Under the pieces are notes generated by a model. It was not told where the DNA came from, ran no database searches, and worked only from the letters and a program-made list of their open reading frames with translations. This document shows, piece after piece, positions 3,959-55,867 of a stretch of 64,000 nt of DNA (the stretch's first letter is position 1; each line of letters starts with the position of its first letter). Where the stretch lies: assembly GCA_037444165.1 (NCBI GenBank), contig JBBIMX010000001.1:1026-65025 (forward strand), in the 5' to 3' direction. Source of the DNA: Deltaproteobacteria bacterium. Lineage in GTDB: Bacteria; Desulfobacterota; BSN033; UBA1163. The position numbers and the translations under genes are program-made.

Positions 3959-5066
3959 TCAGTTTGTATTCGTATTCAGGAGATAGGTTTTCATGAACTC
4001 GTCAATTTCCCCATCCAAGACGCGATCCACCTGATAGATGACCTTATTGGTCCGGTGGTCTTTCACCATCTTATAAGGATGTAAAATGTAAGAACGAATT
4101 TGACTTCCCCAAGCGATCTCTTTCTTCGAATGATGAAGTTCTCGTAATTTTTCCTCCTTCTCCTTTCGTTCCTTCTCATAAAGTCTCGCCTTTAATATTT
4201 TTAAGGCCATCGCTTTATTTTTATGTTGGGAGCGTTCATTTTGGCATTGAACGACGATTCCGGTTGGAAGGTGAGTGATTCGGACGGCAGAATCCGTTTT
4301 ATTCACATGCTGCCCTCCTGCTCCACTCGAACGAAAGGTATCTATTCTCAAATCCTTTTCGTCAATCTCAATATCGATCTCTTCGGGAACCTCGGGAATC
4401 ACAAATACAGAGGCAAAGGAGGTATGTCGCCTCGCTCCTGCGTCAAAGGGAGAGATCCGAACCAATCGATGGATTCCCACTTCTGCCTTTAAATATCCAT
4501 AGGCATACTTACCATTTACGGTAAAGGTCACGTTCTTTATCCCCGCTTCCTCTCCAGGGAGGATATCCACAATTTGGGTTTGATATCCTTTCTTTTCGGC
4601 CCATCTCAAATACATTCTAAGAAGCATTTCAGCCCAATCCTGGGCCTCTGTCCCTCCTGCCCCTGCATTAATGCTCACGATCGCATTTCTCTCGTCATTT
4701 TCCCCCTTCAGCATTTGTCTAAATTCCATCTCATTGATGGCTTCTTCGTTCTGCTGAATTTTTTTAAGAAGTTCTTCGGCTTCCCTTTCATCATTCTGCT
4801 CCTCGATAAGTTGAAGAAGAACCTCCATCTCTTCAATTTCTTTTTTCTTCTCTTGCCAAGAGGATAGGCCTTCTAAAAGAGAATTCCTCTCTTTTAGAAT
4901 TTTTTGTGTCATCTCCCCCCCTTCCCAGAAATTAGGTTCTGACATCATCTTCCCAATCTCGTCTAATCGTTTCTCTTTTTTTTCGAGGTCAAAGATAGCC
5001 TCGCATTATCTCTAAACGATTATTTAACTCCTTCAATCGACCCTTAAGTTCAACAATCATTGCCAT
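3959..5066 (-). CDS. prfB: peptide chain release factor 2 (programmed +1 frameshift)
   Basis: The 329-aa ORF has the SPF motif and the GGQ motif ([21 protein letters not shown]). Upstream, a short frame reading [25 protein letters not shown] ends at the classic CTT TGA C shift site at 4994..4988 (minus). Confidence 0.9.
4988..4994 (-). other. RF2 programmed +1 ribosomal frameshift site CUU UGA C
   Basis: Minus-strand sequence ...GGCTATCTTTGACCTCGAA...; frame 0 stops at TGA and the +1 frame continues [23 protein letters not shown]. Confidence 0.85.
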
Positions 5067-26003: not shown

Positions 26004-26039
26004 AGTTATTTAAAAATGAATGCGTTAACGTTAACACCA

Positions 26040-26068: not shown

Positions 26069-26322
26069 GAAAAAAAGAGAGACCTCTGAAAAAGTATTTA
26101 AAACGAATTTTACAGACTGGGGAGGTGGGGTGGAAAAATCCTTCGAGCGGATACTTTAACCGTTTGGCACTAAAGATTAATTCCCTGAACATGTTTGTTT
26201 TTCTCTTAAACGATGGTTAGCCGATTAACTTCTCAATGCCCGTATTCGAAGGGTTTGGAACCCTACCTCCCAAGTCTTTCTATGACTTTTCAGAGCTCTC
26301 AAGAATAGACCTCGTAACCCCT

Positions 26323-26422
26323 CACTGAAGGGTGGAAATAAATTAAAGCCCAATATTATTTTTTCCAAAACCCATATAACGCCTTATCTGCACTTCCGAC
26401 CGAGTCGGACCTCCCTCTGGCG
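26323..26422. repeat. conserved roughly 100-nt non-coding element, copy A (inverted relative to copy B)
   Basis: About 80% identity to the reverse complement of 34071-34170. Shared blocks are gggtggaaataaatt..aaacccata..gcacttccgaccgaNtcgga.c..ctctggcg. It has no conserved ORF and is intergenic. Confidence 0.6.
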
Positions 26423-26537
26423 AAATGGGTTTCCCCAATACCCCTATCGGATTTATTCCCCGCTTCTGATTGAGGGATTACTTTTTCAAAAATGTCTAAT
26501 TTCTTTAAAAATTATAAATAGTTTCGAATCTCTTCGC

Positions 26538-26876
26538 TTAATGGAGAATATCATCGGGACGTGTTCGTATTTTGAATGGACCTTCCCAAGGATGCTTGAT
26601 TTCTTCCACAAATCTATCCCGACAGCTTTTGCAGAGAACTAAAGTAAACTCTTCATAAACTTCTTTTTCTAACTCTTCAGGATCTGAGTCTTTTACCTGT
26701 TCAAATAATCTTTTTAATTGGCCATCGACCCCTTCCTCCGGTTCTATCAAATAACCATTAAATCCTGCAAAAACTTCAATGTTCACTACGTAAGAAAGAC
26801 TCCCAGGGGGAAGCTCTTTCCCGCATCGAAAACATTTCGTCGCACTCTTCTCCTCTGATTCTTGATCTTTCATCAT
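26538..26876 (-). CDS. hypothetical zinc-ribbon protein (CxxC...CxxC)
   Basis: ORF with CFRCGKE...CKSCRDR. Start placed at the internal MMKDQ to avoid overlapping trmFO. No recognisable family. Confidence 0.4.
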   Translation of the reverse strand: MMKDQESEEKSATKCFRCGKELPPGSLSYVVNIEVFAGFNGYLIEPEEGVDGQLKRLFEQVKDSDPEELEKEVYEEFTLVLCKSCRDRFVEEIKHPWEGPFKIRTRPDDILH

Positions 26877-26889
26877 CTCTTTCCCTTCC

Positions 26890-28197
26890 TTAAAGATGAT
26901 ATTTTTCTTTCCATTCTTGTAATTCTTCCAGCGCCCGTTGAAAAAAGAGAATCCGTTTCCGATGGCCTCTGACCCTCTCTTTGAGTGGAGGAAATAATCC
27001 AAAATTAATATTCATGGGTTGAAAATGAAAATTTTTAAAATAAAGAATATAATGAAGTAAGGCTCCGATAGCCGTGGTTCGGGGAGGGAAAATCGGTTCC
27101 TCTCCTTGCACGTGACGGAGTGCATTGAGACCTGCCAAAAGTCCCATGGCCGTAGATTCCAAATAACCTTCGACTCCTACGATCTGACCTGCCAGATAGA
27201 GATTGGGCTGAGTCCTTAACTGAAGAGAGGGCAGTAACAATCGTGGAGAATCAATAAACGTGTTTCGATGAATGGAACCCCATCGGACAAATTCTGCCTC
27301 CTCAAGACCTGGGATCATCCGGAAAATTCTCTTCTGTTCACTCTGTTTCAATCGAGTCTGAAACCCAACCAGGTTATACATCGTCCCAAATTCATCCTCT
27401 TGCCTCAGTTGAACGACAGCAAAAGGTTGCCTTTTAGTCTTCGGGTCAATGAGACCTACCGGACGAAGGGGACCAAAAGCCAGAGTCTCTTTTCCTCGAA
27501 TAGCCAGTTCTTCAATAGGGAGGCAACCCTCGAAAAGATACCTCTTTTCAAAATCCCTCAATGGAACTTTCTCTGCGTGAATCAACTCCTCTACAAATCG
27601 ATAATATTGCTCTTCATTCATCGGACAATTGAGATAGTCCTCTCCTCCCTTTCCGTATCGCGAGGCTCGAAAGATCTTCTCGAGGTGAAGGGAATCGTAA
27701 GTCACAATGGGCGAGATGGCATCATAGAAAAACAGATTTTGATCCCCTGTCACTTTTTGGATTTCACTACTTAAGGCTTCAGAGGTCAGAGGACCCGTGG
27801 CAATGATAGCCACATCATCTTTGGGCAGTGAGGTGACTTCCTCCCGGATGATCTTGACTCCTTGAAGACTTTCTATGGTTTGAGTAATTTTCTTCGAAAA
27901 CTGTTCCCGATCTACGGCCAGAGATTCTCCAGCAGGAACCCTCGTCTCTCTGGCTATTTTTAAAATGAGAGAATCCAGAAGGCGGAGCTCTTCTTTCAAA
28001 ATGCCGGAGGCATTCTCAAGGGATTCTGATTTTAAGGAATTACTACAGACGAGTTCCGCAAAATAAGGAGATCGGTGAGCAGAAGAATAAACGGCAGGCT
28101 TCATTTCATAGAGAATGACCCGTCCCCCCCTTTTAGCAATTTGCCAGGTCGCTTCACATCCTGCCAGACCTGCTCCAACGACAATGATGGGTTCCAT
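26890..28197 (-). CDS. trmFO: methylenetetrahydrofolate--tRNA-(uracil-5)-methyltransferase TrmFO
   Basis: MEPIIVVGAGLAGCEATWQIAK... FAD motif and TrmFO/Gid family length. Confidence 0.85.
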   Translation of the reverse strand: MEPIIVVGAGLAGCEATWQIAKRGGRVILYEMKPAVYSSAHRSPYFAELVCSNSLKSESLENASGILKEELRLLDSLILKIARETRVPAGESLAVDREQFSKKITQTIESLQGVKIIREEVTSLPKDDVAIIATGPLTSEALSSEIQKVTGDQNLFFYDAISPIVTYDSLHLEKIFRASRYGKGGEDYLNCPMNEEQYYRFVEELIHAEKVPLRDFEKRYLFEGCLPIEELAIRGKETLAFGPLRPVGLIDPKTKRQPFAVVQLRQEDEFGTMYNLVGFQTRLKQSEQKRIFRMIPGLEEAEFVRWGSIHRNTFIDSPRLLLPSLQLRTQPNLYLAGQIVGVEGYLESTAMGLLAGLNALRHVQGEEPIFPPRTTAIGALLHYILYFKNFHFQPMNINFGLFPPLKERVRGHRKRILFFQRALEELQEWKEKYHL

Positions 28198-28351
28198 CGA
28201 TTCTATTTTAGGGCTTCTCCCCTTCATTTGCAAATCCGAGACAGGATTGATCACCTGGAAGGGTAATCCCGAAGGAGAATTTTGACAATTCGACCATAGA
28301 TTGATAGATTAAAAAAGAAAGATCGTTTAAAAAACCTTTATTCACCGAACC

Positions 28352-29668
28352 ATGAAAATCGAACTCATTTCACCTGCTGTTGAGGAGAACGCTCGGATTC
28401 CGAATCTTGCCCTTCCAATCCTTGCTGCCCTCTCCCCCCCGGATGTGAAGATCTCTTTTACCGACGATCTGCTTACCCCCATCGATTTAAACAAAGGATT
28501 AAAAGAGGTAGATCTGGTCGGCATCACTGTTTTAACCAAGACCGCCCATCGAGCCTATCAGATCGCCGAAGCTTATCGAAAGAAAGGGATTCCCGTCGTT
28601 CTGGGAGGAATTCATCCTACGGCCTTACCCGAAGAGGCGAAAGAACATGCGGATGCCGTGGTGATCGGTGAAGCCGAAGAGGTCTGGCCTCGTTTAATCG
28701 AGGATTTTAGATCGAACCATCTTCAACCCTTCTATCGGCAAAGCCATTTGACCGACCTTTCCAAAGTCCCAAGACCTAAGAGAGAGATTCTCCCCCAGAA
28801 GGGATACCTCCCCATTGATGTCGTTCAGGTCAGCAGGGGCTGCCCATTTCGATGTGAATTCTGTACGGTCCATCAATTTTATGGAGAGACCTATCGATTC
28901 CGACCCATCTCAGAGGTGATCGATGAGATTCGACACCTCACCCATCGGTGGATGATGTTTAACGATGATAATATTGTGGGGCATCCCTCTTATTCAAAAG
29001 AATTTCTTCAAGCCTTGATCCCTCTCAAAAAGAAGTGGTTTGCTCAAAGTTCCCTCTCGGGGTTAAAGAGAGTGGAACAGATTGAACTCCTCGCTCGAAG
29101 TGGGTGTAAGAGTCTTTTCATCGGATTTGAATCCCTCTGCAAAGAGAACTTAAAGGGGATCCAAAAATTTCAGAACGATCCGGCTGAATACCGAGACATC
29201 ATCGATATCCTTCATCGCCACGGGATCGCTATCTGTGGGTCTTTCGTGTTTGGATTTGATGAGGATGACCCTTCGGTCTTTGAAAAGACCGTCTCCTTCT
29301 CTATTGAAACAAAACTCTTTTCAGCCGTCTTTATGATCCTCACCCCTTATCCAGAAACGCTCTTCTATCATAGAATGAAAAGAGAAGGGCGTCTGATCAA
29401 GGATCGATGGTGGCTATTCGAAAAACCAGAGGAGGAGGCTCCTTTCTTCCTTCCTCTGAAGATGACCCCCAAGACCCTTCGAGAGGGATGGAAGGAGGCC
29501 TGGAAGACCTTTTATTCCCTGTCCTCCATCTGGAAACGATTTCAGTGGGATTATCCTCCAACCTTAATCAACCGCTTCGTTTATTTTCCCTTTCAATGGA
29601 TGCAATATCGGTTTACAAAGAAAAAGATTCTCGAGGGAAGGCGTCGGTATCGAGGGGGTTCAATCTGA
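28352..29668 (+). CDS. B12-binding domain radical SAM protein (class B), function unknown
   Basis: N-terminal cobalamin-binding-like domain followed by a CPFRCEFC CX3CX2C motif; 438 aa. Its 3' end overlaps the topA 3' end by 9 nt (convergent). Confidence 0.75.
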   Translation: MKIELISPAVEENARIPNLALPILAALSPPDVKISFTDDLLTPIDLNKGLKEVDLVGITVLTKTAHRAYQIAEAYRKKGIPVVLGGIHPTALPEEAKEHADAVVIGEAEEVWPRLIEDFRSNHLQPFYRQSHLTDLSKVPRPKREILPQKGYLPIDVVQVSRGCPFRCEFCTVHQFYGETYRFRPISEVIDEIRHLTHRWMMFNDDNIVGHPSYSKEFLQALIPLKKKWFAQSSLSGLKRVEQIELLARSGCKSLFIGFESLCKENLKGIQKFQNDPAEYRDIIDILHRHGIAICGSFVFGFDEDDPSVFEKTVSFSIETKLFSAVFMILTPYPETLFYHRMKREGRLIKDRWWLFEKPEEEAPFFLPLKMTPKTLREGWKEAWKTFYSLSSIWKRFQWDYPPTLINRFVYFPFQWMQYRFTKKKILEGRRRYRGGSI

Positions 29669-31879
29669 AATCCGATACCCACAATCTTTATTCGGGCACC
29701 TTTTTAAAATCCCGGAACGATTCTGTTTCTCAACCAGAAAAGGAAAGCCACATTGCGGGCATCGCTCTGGAAGGGGTTTATCCCATAGGGCAAATGTACA
29801 TTGGGGGTAATTGCTACAACTGTAGAAGACCTTACCTTTTCGGCTCCTCCGCTCAACGATCATTCCATCACAATGCTCCTGTGGGCATGCGACCCCAGTG
29901 GTCAGGGATTGGGTAAACTTACAGGTGGGATAATTGGAACAGGCTAAAAATCTCCCAAACTTCCCATTCCTGATCACCATCGGACTTTGACACTGTGGAC
30001 ATCGGGCCTCGGTCTCCTCGACGGATTCTCCATTCTCATTCAGATCTTTAGTATAACGACAATGAGGGTATTTAGAACAGGCCAAGAAATATCCCCTCTT
30101 TCCCCACCGCCTTACCATCTTTGAACCACACCGCTCACATTTCTCTTCCGTAGGGATCATCTCGGCCTTCATATTTCTCATGGAGACTTTGGCCATGTCG
30201 AGATCCTTTTTGAAATGGGAGTAAAATTCTCGAAGCGTTTCCACCCATCCTTTCTTCTCCTCCTCGATCTGATCCAAATTCTCTTCCATCTGAGCAGTAA
30301 ATTCGACATCGAAGATCTCCGGAAAATGGACGACCAAAAGGTCGTTGACCACAAATCCCAATTCGGTTGGAACAAATCTCCCCTTCTCCAATCGCACATA
30401 TCCTTTTTCTTTAATCGTGCTTAAGATGGTGGCATAGGTAGACGGCCTTCCAATGCCCTTTTCCTCTAATTCCTTGATCAAGGTGGCTTCTGAGAATCGA
30501 TAAGGAGGTTGGGTAAAATGCTGTTTTGGGGTGAGAGCCAGTAGGTCCAAAATCTCTCCTTCGGAAAGAGGAGGTAAGGATTCTTCCTTCCCCTCTTCAT
30601 GGTTATCTTCGCTCTCCACATAGAGGGCCATAAACCCTAAAAATAGAGGGATCGAACCGGTAGCACTGAAGATCGCTTCGTCTGATTTGATCTCCACCTG
30701 GGTTTGAAGAAAACGGGCCGGGGCCATCTGGGAAGCCACAAATCGATCCCAGATCAATTTATACAGTTCAAATTGATCTTTGGTGAGATGGGGTTTGATC
30801 TTTTCTGGCTCCAGCTCCATCGAAGTGGGTCGGATGGCTTCATGGGCCTCTTGAGCCCCTTTCCGACTCCGATAGAGATTGGGTTTTATGGGTAGATAGG
30901 AATCTCCAAACTGTTTTTTAATCCATTCCCTCACCTGGTGGATCGCCTCTGTAGAGACCCGAACAGAATCCGTCCTCATGTAGGTGATAAGACCCACCTG
31001 CCCCATCTTTCCAAGACCAACCCCTTCATAAAGTTCCTGAGCAATCCTCATCGTCTTCTGAGCAGAGAAGTTGAGTTTCCGATAGGCCTCCTGTTGGAGT
31101 CGACTGGTAATGAAAGGAGGAAGAGGATGCCTTTCTCTTTCCTGTTGAACGATCTTGGTAACGACAAAAGGAAGCGATTCCAATGCCTTTTTGATGGCCA
31201 TCGCTTCAGCTTCATTGGCGATCTTGACTTTTTTCCCCTTCCATTTCACCAGCTTGGCATCAAAAGGGGTTGGGGAATCCTTCCCCTTAAGGGTTGCAGT
31301 AAGACTCCAGTATTCTTCGGGAACAAAACTCTGAATCTCCCGTTCCCTTTCACAGATGATTCGGACAGCTACGGTTTGAACCCGACCTGCACTCAACCCT
31401 CGCCTCACTTTTTCCCAGAGAAGAGGGCTGACCTGATAGCCTACGAGTCGATCCAGGATCCTTCGGGCCTGCTGGGCTTCGTACTTGGAAAGCTGAAGTT
31501 TTGCAGGTTTCTGAAGAGCTTCGAGAACAGCCTTCTCTGTGATTTCATGAAAGAGGACTCGATGGATATTCTTTCCTTTCTCACGGATCTCCTCAGCAAT
31601 GTGCCAGGCAATGGCTTCCCCTTCCCGATCCGGGTCGGGACCCAAGTAAATATCCTTGACTTCTCGACTGGCCTTTTTCAATTCTCGTATGATTTTGGCC
31701 TTGCCTGGGAGGACGACATAATGGGGTTTAAAATCATCCTCAATGTCAACTCCCAATTCATTCTCCGGTAGGTCTTTGATATGACCGATCGACGCCTTGA
31801 TGAGATACTCCTTCCCTAAAAATTTCTGTAGGGTTTTGACTTTGGTAGGAGACTCAACAATCAGAAGTCCTTTTGCCAT
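29660..31879 (-). CDS. topA: DNA topoisomerase I
   Basis: 739 aa; Toprim domain, catalytic region and multiple C-terminal zinc ribbons (CxxC...CxxC repeated three times). Confidence 0.9.
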   Translation of the reverse strand: MAKGLLIVESPTKVKTLQKFLGKEYLIKASIGHIKDLPENELGVDIEDDFKPHYVVLPGKAKIIRELKKASREVKDIYLGPDPDREGEAIAWHIAEEIREKGKNIHRVLFHEITEKAVLEALQKPAKLQLSKYEAQQARRILDRLVGYQVSPLLWEKVRRGLSAGRVQTVAVRIICEREREIQSFVPEEYWSLTATLKGKDSPTPFDAKLVKWKGKKVKIANEAEAMAIKKALESLPFVVTKIVQQERERHPLPPFITSRLQQEAYRKLNFSAQKTMRIAQELYEGVGLGKMGQVGLITYMRTDSVRVSTEAIHQVREWIKKQFGDSYLPIKPNLYRSRKGAQEAHEAIRPTSMELEPEKIKPHLTKDQFELYKLIWDRFVASQMAPARFLQTQVEIKSDEAIFSATGSIPLFLGFMALYVESEDNHEEGKEESLPPLSEGEILDLLALTPKQHFTQPPYRFSEATLIKELEEKGIGRPSTYATILSTIKEKGYVRLEKGRFVPTELGFVVNDLLVVHFPEIFDVEFTAQMEENLDQIEEEKKGWVETLREFYSHFKKDLDMAKVSMRNMKAEMIPTEEKCERCGSKMVRRWGKRGYFLACSKYPHCRYTKDLNENGESVEETEARCPQCQSPMVIRNGKFGRFLACSNYPTCKFTQSLTTGVACPQEHCDGMIVERRSRKGKVFYSCSNYPQCTFALWDKPLPERCPQCGFPFLVEKQNRSGILKRCPNKDCGYRISD

Positions 31880-31901
31880 TTAAAAACTCTTCCTTTCCCA
31901 T

Positions 31902-33053
31902 TCACATCTTTTTGCTAAAACATTTTCCGGGCCATTGAATGATCAACCCTTTCAGTTCTAAATTTAATAGAAGGCTGGAAACTTTTCCAGGATCAAGACC
32001 ACTTTCTCTAATGATCGTATCGATATGCAATGGATTCTCCCCCATTTGTTCATAAATCTGTTTCTCTTCCAGCGTGAGTTCTGGTCCGGAGGGCTCGACC
32101 TCTTCCCCTCTCTCTTTTTCTCTTTTCCATTGAGGAAGAATCTCCTCGAGGATATCTTCGCTCGATTCGACTAATTTAGCACCCTGTCTAATCAAGAGAT
32201 GAGTCCCTCGACTTCCTTTGGCTCCGATATTTCCTGGAACGGCAAAAACCTCTCTTCCTTGCTCCAGGGCGTAATGAGCAGTAATCAAAGACCCACTCTC
32301 CTCACTGGCCTCGACGACGACAACCCCGATCGCGAGTCCACTGATAATCCGATTCCGTTTTGGGAAATGGCTTCCTTCAGGTGGGGAGCCCATCGGGAAC
32401 TCACTGAGTACTGCTCCGTGATCGAGGATCCTCCTGAAAAGAACCCGATTCTCGGAAGGATAGATTCGGTCCACTCCACACCCTAAGACCGCGATCGTCC
32501 TCCCCCCAACGGAAAGAGCACCCAGATGGGCCACGGAATCAATCCCTCTTGCCATTCCACTAATGATGGTTACGCCATGGGAGGCTAATTCCTGACTTAT
32601 CTTCTCCGTAACCCACCTCCCATAGGGGGAAGTTTTTCGACTTCCTACCATCGCCACAGCCAACTCGTCCTCTTTTTTCAATTCTCCTCGCATATAAAGA
32701 ATGGGAGGGGGGTCGTAGATTTCCCTGAGACGTTTGGGGTAATTTTCGTCATTTAAGGTAATGATCTTTCCTCCAACCTCTTCAATTAATGAGAGTTCTC
32801 GATGGATCCTCTCCTCAGATGGACCTTTCAGAATCTCGTTGGCCACCTTTTCATTTAGGCCTTCCACATTTAATAATTCCTTTAAAGAAGCCTGAAACAC
32901 AGCCTCCGGGGTTCTAAATTGATCCAATAACCTTTTGATCAGGACGCTTCCTAATCCGGGAGTTAGGGATAATCCCACCCAATAAAAAAGATCTTGGGGC
33001 ATCGAAGGTCTCTGAGAATTTGGATCTATAAGATATTTAGAATCAAATGACAA
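31902..33053 (-). CDS. dprA: DNA processing protein DprA
   Basis: DprA Rossmann-like core (GMARGIDSVAHLGAL...GRTIAVLGCGVDRIYPSEN); sits directly upstream of topA, as is common. Confidence 0.85.
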   Translation of the reverse strand: MSFDSKYLIDPNSQRPSMPQDLFYWVGLSLTPGLGSVLIKRLLDQFRTPEAVFQASLKELLNVEGLNEKVANEILKGPSEERIHRELSLIEEVGGKIITLNDENYPKRLREIYDPPPILYMRGELKKEDELAVAMVGSRKTSPYGRWVTEKISQELASHGVTIISGMARGIDSVAHLGALSVGGRTIAVLGCGVDRIYPSENRVLFRRILDHGAVLSEFPMGSPPEGSHFPKRNRIISGLAIGVVVVEASEESGSLITAHYALEQGREVFAVPGNIGAKGSRGTHLLIRQGAKLVESSEDILEEILPQWKREKERGEEVEPSGPELTLEEKQIYEQMGENPLHIDTIIRESGLDPGKVSSLLLNLELKGLIIQWPGKCFSKKM

Positions 33054-33116
33054 AAAAGCTTTGAAGACATTTCTGTCTCCAAAGCTTTAAAGAGTTCACC
33101 CAATGAGATTCACCTC

Positions 33117-33911
33117 TTATTGAGTGCTGATCTCCATCCGGTCTTTATCGTAGGGTTGGACCATATCCCCCTTCTCAATATAATCGAAGGCTTCGATAAT
33201 CTTGGCGGTATAAAAATTTCCAAATTGATCAATGATCTGAACATTTCCAGTAATGTTATACTTTCTTCCTACCTTTTTTCGGGTAAGTGGATCATGGACC
33301 ACATCTGATGCCCTGAAAAGGGTATATTTATTCCCAACCGACACCGTCTCTCTGGTTTTGAAGGCCAAATAAGCAATATCGCCTTCAGACATAAGATTCT
33401 TTCCTTCTTTGCTATCTAAGACGACCCCAATTCCAGAATAATGAAGATCTCCGATGAATCCTGCAGACCTCAGCTCAGGAAAACCGACCCTCTTCCTTTC
33501 AGGAGGAGTAGGCGGTTTAGCTTCGACCTTGGGTAAAACTGCAGGTTCTGGTTTTTCTTCCTTAGGAGGGGGCTCGACCTTCTTTTCAACGACCTTTTCA
33601 ATTACTTCTTTAGGTTTCTCTTCAATGACCTTAGGAGGTTCTTCTCTTTTTACCTCTTCAAAGGGGGAGAGACGAATGGGATTTCCTGGATAGATCCAAT
33701 GGGGATTAGTGATATAAGGATTTCTTTGCCACAATTTTGGCCATAAAAATGGGTCCTTTAGAAACCTGCTGGAGATATCCCAAAGTGTATCACCCTTTTT
33801 TATGGTGTAAATCCCTTCTTCCTCCTTTTTCTCCTGTGCGTTCGTTGAAAAGACGACAAAAAAGACGAATACCAAGGTAAAAATAAGAGGGATAAACATC
33901 CATCTCTTCAT
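33117..33911 (-). CDS. LysM domain-containing secreted protein
   Basis: Signal peptide plus a LysM motif ([16 protein letters not shown]), a Pro/Glu/Lys-rich linker and a C-terminal domain. Confidence 0.7.
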
Positions 33912-34042
33912 CTCTATCTCCTCCTCTTTTCAAGGTTGGTTAAAATAAAATTAGGTTTTACAATTATCTCCAGGCCTAAAATTACGAATTTAAATTGAAG
34001 GTAACAAAAAATCTGTTTATATTTACCCCCTTACCGCTTTTT

Positions 34043-34071
34043 TGTCAAGAAAAATATGTCAACATAATCCC
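34043..34071 (+). promoter_or_regulatory. candidate promoter pair flanking element copy B
   Basis: Plus strand TTGTCA-17nt-TAATCC ends exactly at the 5' edge of copy B. On the minus strand, TTGACA(34038..34033)-17nt-TAAATA(34015..34010) lies upstream of the LysM gene and downstream of copy B. Confidence 0.25.
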
Positions 34072-34170
34072 GCCAGAGGCGGATCCGATTCGGTCGGAAG
34101 TGCGGCTAAGGCCTTCTATGGGTTTCGGACATAGTCCTGTCGCACTTAAATTTATTTCCACCCTCCAGCG
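34071..34170. repeat. conserved roughly 100-nt non-coding element, copy B
   Basis: cgccagaggcggatccgattcggtcggaagtgcggctaaggcc...ttccaccc, the reverse complement of copy A. Contains a conserved hairpin (tccgaNtcggtcgga). Confidence 0.6.
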
Positions 34171-34380
34171 ATGAATGACAGCAATATTTATACCAAATTA
34201 CTTCTCATTTAAATTGTTTCATTATTTTTTAATTTTATTGATTTTTTTGATATTTTTTAAAAAATTCTACTTCTTTCCCCCTCTTAAAAGTGGACAATTT
34301 TTATACAGAATGTCAAAATTTTTGAACAATTCATTAATTTGACAAAGCCATTTCCCTTATGGTATTTCCAACATTAAAAT

Positions 34381-40816: not shown

Positions 40817-41003
40817 TGTTTCTTCTCCACCAAAAAGATTTTAATTTATCATTATATAGCAGAAATTGACCTTCTCTGTCCACAAAAATGTTCGCTCAAA
40901 GGGACTCCTCACTCAATTGGGGGAAGGGGCCGAGAGGGTCTACAAGGGATGACTGCACTCTAAGAGTTGATTTTTATTTCTAATATATGCAAGGATTAAA
41001 TGA

Positions 41004-55705: not shown

Positions 55706-55867
55706 TTTTTATTCCTCCTTTCTTTTTCTCTCGATGGGTGAGAGAATAGAATGTTGAATAAGAATAGACCATCTTTTTTAAAATATTCGATTTTCAAAAA
55801 ATTTTCAACAAAATTTTGCCCTAAATGGGTAATCCCTCACTGAAGGTTAAGATTTTGCCTTTTTATA

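Follow-up and report, generated by a model that had tools for sequence, protein, structure and literature searches.

Two inverted intergenic repeats in an uncultured "Syntrophaceae" lineage as probable copies of an undescribed MITE family

The window, as we call the whole 64,000-nucleotide stretch of DNA analysed here, contains two similar segments in inverted orientation on either side of a 7.6-kb block of housekeeping genes, and the question is what these segments are and whether their arrangement has a function. The similarity of positions 26323-26422 to the reverse complement of 34071-34170 was borne out (79 of 100 positions identical in an ungapped alignment) and is far beyond chance. The shared blocks named in the original prediction were all found (GGGTGGAAATAAATT, AAACCCATA and GCACTTCCGACCGA-N-TCGGA..CCTCTGGCG), and the only difference between the two copies in CCGACCGA(G/A)TCGG does fall in the loop, as had been claimed, if the stem is taken as 5 bp. 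Both copies are indeed intergenic, and no ORF is common to them. An extent of roughly 100 nt is right for the similarity but not for the element, as the first copy (copy A) really spans 168 nt (26314-26481); its 3′ arm was overlooked because the second copy (copy B) lacks that arm. Using an nhmmer profile built from related copies, we obtained matches in the window to copy A (model positions 1-185, E = 1.4e-50) and copy B (E = 7e-27) only.

Searches beyond the window revealed a large repeat family, dispersed in many copies over this bacterium and close relatives of it. In one related MAG, 12 contigs contain a 19-nt core, a 19-nt left-arm pattern recovered at least 120 metagenome stretches, and nhmmer analysis of 1.07 Mb of fetched loci yielded 175 non-overlapping copies or fragments. 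These fall into modular size classes of ~115, 165, 183, 235, 265 and 283 nt, with imperfect terminal inverted repeats of ~45 nt in every class (GTAAYCCCTCACTGAAGG... / ...GTGAGGGATTAC), and deletion derivatives of 60-283 nt always keep both ends. The left end reads GTAAYCCCTCACTGAAGGGTGGAAATAAATTTAAGCCCGACAGGAGTATT and the right end AATACCCCTCTCGGGCTTATYCCCCA..TGAGTGAGGGATTAC. Target-site duplications of 8 bp are perfect in 39 of 65 full-length copies and match at 7 of 8 positions in another 10; random pairing of flanks, which served as the control, gave 0% at 8/8 and 1.8% at 7/8. A 31-nt hairpin module (M3), with an 18-nt palindrome nested inside it, is optional and is missing from the commonest form (235 nt), which makes up 48 of 74 full copies, and ATGGGTTTCT is present in M2 and also in M4. 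The copies have no coding capacity and no ORF in common; their neighbouring genes are unrelated, and element orientation relative to these neighbours varies. Small size without a transposase gene, terminal inverted repeats, a duplication of fixed length and dispersed, variable copies together characterize this family as an undescribed MITE in an uncultured Thermodesulfobacteriota ("Syntrophaceae") lineage, and we consider it highly probable that both segments of the window are copies of this one non-coding family.

Copy A (26314-26481, plus strand) is a complete short-form element with modules M1, M3 and M4, located in the 535-nt spacer that separates pycB from the small zinc-ribbon-like ORF on the downstream side of trmFO. 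Its termini can be read directly from the sequence (GTAACCCCTCAC... and ...TTGAGGGATTAC). On the plus strand, the family alignment places the 5′ arm (M1), with the left terminal inverted repeat, at 26314-26383, and this arm pairs with 26424-26481 in the fold. The optional hairpin block (M3), TTCCGACCGAGTCGGACCTCCCTCTGGCGA, follows at 26394-26423 and is the block that had been judged best conserved. The 3′ arm (M4), with the right terminal inverted repeat, occupies 26424-26481 and is the part without a counterpart in copy B. No recognisable target-site duplication is left at copy A, and the site is occupied in the window and in relatives with 98% TopA identity, and empty in relatives at 92% and 88%.

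Copy B (34066-34179, minus strand) is a 114-nt, internally deleted copy that retains M1 and M3 but, of M4, only the final 6 nt (GGGATT), and its 5′ terminus is degenerate (GTCATTCATCGC). An intact target-site duplication, ATATTGCT, adjoins it at 34180-34187, and a decayed second copy, ATGTTGA, at 34059-34065, both on the minus strand. Base-level comparison with orthologues revealed three states of this site. Loci L146, L147 and L151 are empty and contain a single ATATTGCT (GGTATAAATATTGCT/CATATTTTTCTTGACA), L142 and L143 read ATATTGCT-[103-nt copy]-ATATTGCT, and the arrangement in the window is ATATTGCT-[copy B]-ATGTTGA, the ATGTTGA corresponding in the alignment to the second ATATTGCT in L142 and L143. 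In relatives with TopA 92%, 88% and 83% identical the site is empty, with one ATATTGCT, and in the 98% relatives an element occupies the identical 8 bp in the orientation opposite to that in the window. Promoter-like hexamers had also been proposed on both strands at copy B; a minus-strand TTGACA is present at 34048-34043, but a consensus scan gave nothing striking. This TTGACA is kept in all relatives, ~10 nt from the insertion point, which places copy B ~10 nt upstream of a conserved −35 box in the LysM-dprA-topA promoter region. Judging from this position in the sequence, copy B could alter LysM-dprA-topA expression in carrier genomes.

For the origin of these copies we infer a DDE-type transposase, encoded elsewhere, that would bind both element ends. 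Insertion would proceed via 8-bp staggered cuts in the target, and repair would generate the 8-bp direct duplication. Copy A, with both ends present, is a complete short form, and copy B is a fossil that has been deleted internally, its left end degenerate and its right end reduced to 6 nt. Size variants appear to originate from internal deletions between short direct repeats, such as ATGGGTTTCT. The inverted layout around the housekeeping genes is coincidental and reflects two separate insertion events in intergenic spacers.

Three points count against this scheme: no autonomous parent element turned up in the searches described below, copy A lacks a recognisable target duplication, and the opposite orientations at site B, in the window versus the 98% relatives, are unexplained by simple vertical inheritance of one insertion. 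At locus L044, two copies of opposite orientation are each flanked by the same 8-mer, so that CGATACAC occurs three times; in L013 an 8-nt spacer, GCTCAATG, separates two adjacent copies, and neighbouring same-strand copies lie ~9 nt apart in L078 and L108. Because of these arrangements and the opposite orientations at site B, we also considered that a given 8-bp target may be used more than once by this family or that the element may flip in place, a proposal we regard as rather unlikely. If this were true, the transposase would prefer to insert at the exact ends of resident copies, or would act via abutted-end junction intermediates, and the 31-nt hairpin block could be a passenger with its own function (for example RNA stabiliser, terminator or a protein site brought to promoters).

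The best-surviving alternative to a MITE is a duplicated, structured sRNA gene or a cis-regulatory RNA (leader or riboswitch) with the hairpins as its functional part, but we consider this very unlikely. Copy A folds as a long rod on both the plus strand (−45.3 kcal/mol, z = −3.3) and the minus strand (−60.3 kcal/mol, z = −4.3), and no stretch is better conserved between copies A and B than the 31-nt hairpin block. However, a rod is expected by construction from terminal inverted repeats, and the hairpin block is absent from the commonest form of the family, as described above. Both element orientations occur at one site, the genes next to different copies differ and are unrelated, and 8-bp target duplications would have no reason on an RNA gene. 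The whole window gave no Rfam match at gathering thresholds, and relaxing the cutoff to E up to 10 for both regions gave chance-level matches only (E ≥ 1.3). Covariation terms from RNAalifold were +1.85 (12 short copies) and −0.09 (45 medium copies), the pairs being simply invariant. No tRNA or tmRNA was detected in the window. Without an Rfam match or covariation, and with an optional hairpin and variable orientation, the sRNA and regulatory-RNA readings of the original prediction are unsupported. A riboswitch or leader on the reverse strands, facing the outward genes (pycB and MTase), was likewise dropped, as these genes have nothing in common and the elements turned out to be mobile.

A REP/BIME-type palindrome spread by a RAYT (IS200/IS605-like, Y1) transposase also shares features with the family. 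Both REP/BIME sequences and these elements are abundant intergenic palindromic repeats, and the multi-copy elements described here have a head that starts with GTA. REP-type elements lack target-site duplications and have palindromic units of 20-40 nt, and Y1 transposases are not known to yield target duplications or precise empty sites. In contrast, most copies of the present family have clean 8-bp target duplications, a precise empty site is observed, and the elements, at 115-283 nt and with imperfect inverted ends of 45 nt, are unlike 20-40-nt REP hairpins. We therefore regard a REP origin as extremely improbable. Of the REP/MITE-like element once suggested for these segments, the MITE half stands on the inverted ends, 8-bp duplications, many copies and empty and filled sites, and the REP half falls on the presence of target duplications.

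Equally hard to credit is the suggestion that the copies bracket the 7.6-kb trmFO-rSAM-topA-dprA-LysM block as recombination sites that flip it, although copies A and B are mutually inverted in this window. The window has the gene order MTase<-/->LysM-dprA-topA-(rSAM)-trmFO-zf-pycB-lacI-mdh, and so do the 98% relatives, where both sites are filled, and those at 92% and 88%, where both are empty. In the 98% relatives, moreover, the site-B copy is flipped, which makes the pair direct rather than inverted. Similarity between A and B extends over only ~100 nt (79% identity), and their longest exact run, 16 nt, is too short for efficient RecA homologous recombination.

Returning to the MITE assignment, known bacterial examples include Correia/NEMIS (Neisseria), ERIC/IRU (enterobacteria), RUP (Streptococcus pneumoniae) and Chunjie (Geobacter). 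Like these, the family described here consists of short (~115-285 nt), multi-copy elements that do not code for protein and lie mostly between genes, with terminal inverted repeats and a fixed-length duplication; it comes in several size classes derived by deletion, and a transcript would fold into a long hairpin. In contrast, its sequence is unrelated as far as tested (Rfam, plasmid BLAST, literature), and its optional hairpin block with the nested palindrome is a further difference. Moreover, this family duplicates 8 bp, whereas Correia duplicates TA. A literature search on MITEs in syntrophs returned nothing relevant.

An autonomous parent was not found in the window. Across ~1.3 Mb of loci, we looked for the 13-nt terminus in inverted pairs separated by 0.3-5 kb and found no matching-end pair around an ORF. 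ORF clustering grouped only syntenic housekeeping genes and gave no multi-copy ORF of at least 250 aa, and BLAST of plasmid records gave no match to the family. A scan of viral contigs produced one match, dismissed as GC-rich chance, and orphan termini, including a 130-nt stretch common to L109 and L123, led to no parent. The DDE_Tnp_1_4 transposase that adjoins LysM in L150 (an 83% relative) has ends unlike those of the MITE. For the parent family, the sequence features of GTAA ends and 8-bp duplications suggest IS66 as a candidate source. As summarized in PMC11946415, citing TnCentral, IS66 elements have terminal inverted repeats of 20-30 bp starting GTAA(GCG) and 8-bp direct repeats. The MITE ends start GTAA(Y)CCC and likewise come with 8-bp duplications, but agreement with the IS66 end consensus is limited to the first four bases, GTAA. 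No IS66-type tnpA, tnpB or tnpC lies beside or between any ends in the loci examined. Duplications of 8 bp are also made by IS256, ISL3, IS6 and IS1595, and these remain candidates.

Further sites that vary in presence or absence were located at 28.26, 40.9 and 55.8 kb of the window. At 40901-40953 (plus strand) the family has left a diverged micro-copy relic; the orthologous site contains a clear arm-only copy in L124 and two tandem copies in L013. At 55829-55846 (plus strand) is a solo 18-nt left terminus, GTAATCCCTCACTGAAGG, in an intergenic region that harbours a 265-nt copy and a micro copy in L044 and a 183-nt copy in L030. The 8 nt of the element terminus, GGGATTAC, recur at 28263-28270 (minus strand) as a possible footprint in the rSAM/trmFO spacer, where the 98% relatives have a micro copy of ~100 nt; by itself the 8-mer lacks significance, and what is suggestive is only its orthologous position.

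Insertion sites differ between genomes with TopA 92-98% identical, and provide a fine-scale marker of strain divergence. The repeats also explain assembly breaks in this lineage at copy positions, and annotators should not label them as sRNAs or regulatory motifs. As a MITE pair, copies A and B are ordinary biology and leave current understanding unchallenged. Exact-protein look-ups of window genes recovered only short Logan contigs, which stop at repeats, and several contigs end inside element copies.

Two copies of a non-coding element lie in the window, a 168-nt copy A at 26314-26481 (+) and a 114-nt copy B at 34179-34066 (-). As originally predicted, segment 26323-26422 and the reverse complement of 34071-34170 form an inverted pair of about 80% identity (79 of 100 positions, ungapped) that shares the blocks GGGTGGAAATAAATT, AAACCCATA and GCACTTCCGACCGA-N-TCGGA...CCTCTGGCG. 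Both copies are indeed intergenic. The spacer that holds A measures 535 nt, with pycB on one side and, on the other, a small ORF located downstream of trmFO; that of B measures 470 nt and separates LysM-dprA-topA from a divergently oriented methyltransferase gene. The location thus stood but the extent of roughly 100 nt did not, as copy A starts 9 nt earlier and runs ~60 nt further 3'. Alignment with related stretches revealed that the termini of copy A are mutually inverted repeats (GTAACCCCTCACTGAAGGGTGGAAATAAATT... and ...GGATTTATTCCCCGCTTCTGATTGAGGGATTAC). A profile search of the window returned only two matches, A (26314-26480, E = 1.4e-50) and B (34176-34067, E = 7e-27), and the window contains no tRNA or tmRNA.

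Comparison of the 8 nt flanking each side of 65 full-length copies, with random flank pairing as control, revealed identical 8-mers in 39 copies and one mismatch in 10 more; random pairing afforded no 8/8 matches, and 7/8 in 1.8%. We also fetched topA neighborhoods from relatives whose TopA is 98, 92, 88 or 83% identical to that of the window. The copy B insertion position (site B) is empty in the 92%, 88% and 83% relatives, where GGTATAAATATTGCT directly adjoins CATATTTTTCTTGACA with one ATATTGCT. The 98% relatives possess a 103-nt copy between two ATATTGCT, and the window reads ATATTGCT, copy B, then ATGTTGA. The same CATATTTT..TTGACA follows site B in the window and all compared relatives, and this filled/empty alignment rules out truncation of copy B by the promoter; instead, copy B carries an internal deletion joining ...CTCTGGCG to the terminal GGGATT, with the second duplication copy decayed. 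In the 98% relatives site A is likewise occupied, at an identical position, and their contigs end inside the element; the 92% and 88% relatives have an empty site there. No target duplication is left around copy A, and the pycB-side flank varies among relatives. Inverted ends, fixed 8-bp target duplications, many copies, and filled and empty sites that differ between close relatives establish that, among the earlier suggestions, a miniature inverted-repeat transposable element (MITE) was the correct one. MITEs as a kind are well known; what is new here is the family itself, an undescribed one from an uncultured Thermodesulfobacteriota lineage.

The family is abundant in this lineage. A scan with the 19-nt core CACTTCCGACCGANTCGGA against one genome per species matched 18 stretches; 12 of these came from one MAG, "uncultured Syntrophaceae bacterium SRP231805_co4_160", each on a contig of its own. 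A 19-nt left-arm pattern matched at least 120 metagenome stretches, and a profile search of 1.07 Mb of fetched loci yielded 175 non-overlapping copies or fragments. Several repeat-bearing contigs, including one from the SRP231805_co4_160 MAG, are 91-95% identical to the window over kilobases, so the window organism is a close relative of that MAG. An 88%-identical TopA homologue is labeled Thermodesulfobacteriota.

Four modules make up the family: a 5' arm of ~70 nt (M1), a central segment of ~108 nt (M2), a 31-nt hairpin block TTCCGACCGAGTCGGATCCGCCTMTGGCGGA (M3) and a 3' arm of ~60 nt (M4). The commonest full-length form is the 235-nt M1+M2+M4 (48 of 74 full copies), while a 265-nt form carries all modules. 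Copy A consists of M1+M3+M4, and ~115-nt forms, like the 103-nt copy at site B of the 98% relatives, of M1+M4; many further deletion derivatives exist, and all retain both ends. The opening motif of M4, ATGGGTTTCT, occurs a second time within M2, and several size variants correspond to an exact deletion between these direct repeats. The conserved hairpin noted previously is present in both A and B, but it is not the core of the element, since the commonest form lacks M3. Some M3 blocks contain a nested 18-nt palindrome, which is confined to that context (8/8 occurrences).

An sRNA gene or leader is disfavored by the optional M3, variable orientation and unrelated neighboring genes. The fold of copy A is a long rod (z = -3.3 for the plus and -4.3 for the minus strand), a shape that inverted ends give by construction. 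Rfam searches at gathering thresholds, and more permissively up to E = 10, matched no family. RNAalifold returned a covariation term of +1.85 when run on 12 short copies and of -0.09 when run on 45 medium ones, with pairs nearly all invariant; nothing supports selection on RNA structure, in copies too alike to exclude it. The proposed regulatory module likewise found no support. Nor does anything support an inversion switch acting on the 7.6-kb block: the order methyltransferase (divergent), LysM-dprA-topA-(rSAM)-trmFO-zf-pycB-lacI-mdh is kept in the window, in the 98% relatives (both sites filled) and in the 92% and 88% relatives (both empty), and the longest identical run between A and B is 16 bases. 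Furthermore, the site-B copy of the 98% relatives is opposite to the window's while the site-A orientation is the same, so the inverted pair is peculiar to the window genome.

Two genomes with 98% identical TopA carry the element at one 8-bp target, site B, but facing opposite ways. In locus L044 of a relative, CGATACAC occurs three times, flanking each of two oppositely oriented copies. Adjacent copies also occur in L013 (8-nt spacer) and, on the same strand and ~9 nt apart, in L078 and L108. Such arrangements might result from insertions made repeatedly at the ends of resident copies, one copy later being lost, or from junction-type intermediates.

Three more traces occur in the window, and orthologous sites of relatives hold fuller copies. 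A diverged micro copy lies at 40901-40953; the orthologous site of L124 clearly holds an arm-only copy, and that of the MAG contig L013 two copies (4424-4656 and 4662-4887) separated by an 8-nt spacer (GCTCAATG). A solo 18-nt left terminus (GTAATCCCTCACTGAAGG) lies at 55829-55846, in a spacer where L030 has a 183-nt copy and L044 two oppositely oriented ones, of 265 nt and, as a micro copy, 47 nt. At 28263-28270 (minus strand), where the rSAM/trmFO spacer of the 98% relatives contains a micro copy of ~100 nt (L142 12890-12990), nothing but GGGATTAC is left in the window; this may be the footprint of a deletion or excision. Separately, the copy at L114 365-459 is interrupted after ~100 nt by sequence starting GTGCGCC..., which resembles the 5' terminus of a group II intron.

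Mobilization most likely involves a DDE transposase encoded elsewhere, which would recognize both ends and insert the element at target cuts staggered by 8 bp. Matching ends flanking an ORF were absent from ~1.3 Mb of loci, no multi-copy ORF was found in the fetched loci, and plasmid records gave no match to the element; a single viral-contig match was attributed to chance. IS66 family hallmarks are ends beginning GTAA and 8-bp duplications (PMC11946415). The MITE shares both, but agreement of its ends is limited to four bases, so IS66 as parent may serve as a lead rather than a claim of membership. In an 83% relative, the methyltransferase/LysM spacer, which in the window holds copy B, encodes a 440-aa transposase (L150 197-1519; Pfam DDE_Tnp_1_4 / DDE_Tnp_1), and this promoter-proximal spacer seems tolerant of insertions. 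The L150 IS adjoining LysM was rejected as transposase source, its ends being unrelated to those of the MITE. Two contigs of one metagenome (L109 2823-2952 and L123 13378-13507) share a 100% identical 130-nt stretch that opens with the MITE terminus GTAATCCCTCACTGAAG and continues into unrelated sequence. The stretch may represent one end of a related element, or else an artefact of assembly.

A B12-binding radical-SAM gene (28352-29668), encoded on the opposite strand, separates topA from trmFO, with a 9-nt overlap with the topA stop. The 98% and 83% relatives also have this gene; the 92% and 88% ones (L146-L149) lack it, and there trmFO directly follows topA. A conserved TTGACA precedes the palindrome TGCGTTAACGTTAACA (26021-26036), which lies immediately 5' of pycB. 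The palindrome is maintained in the 92% and 88% relatives and looks like a candidate operator for the LacI-family regulator encoded beside pycB in the pycB-lacI-mdh-fumarase cluster.
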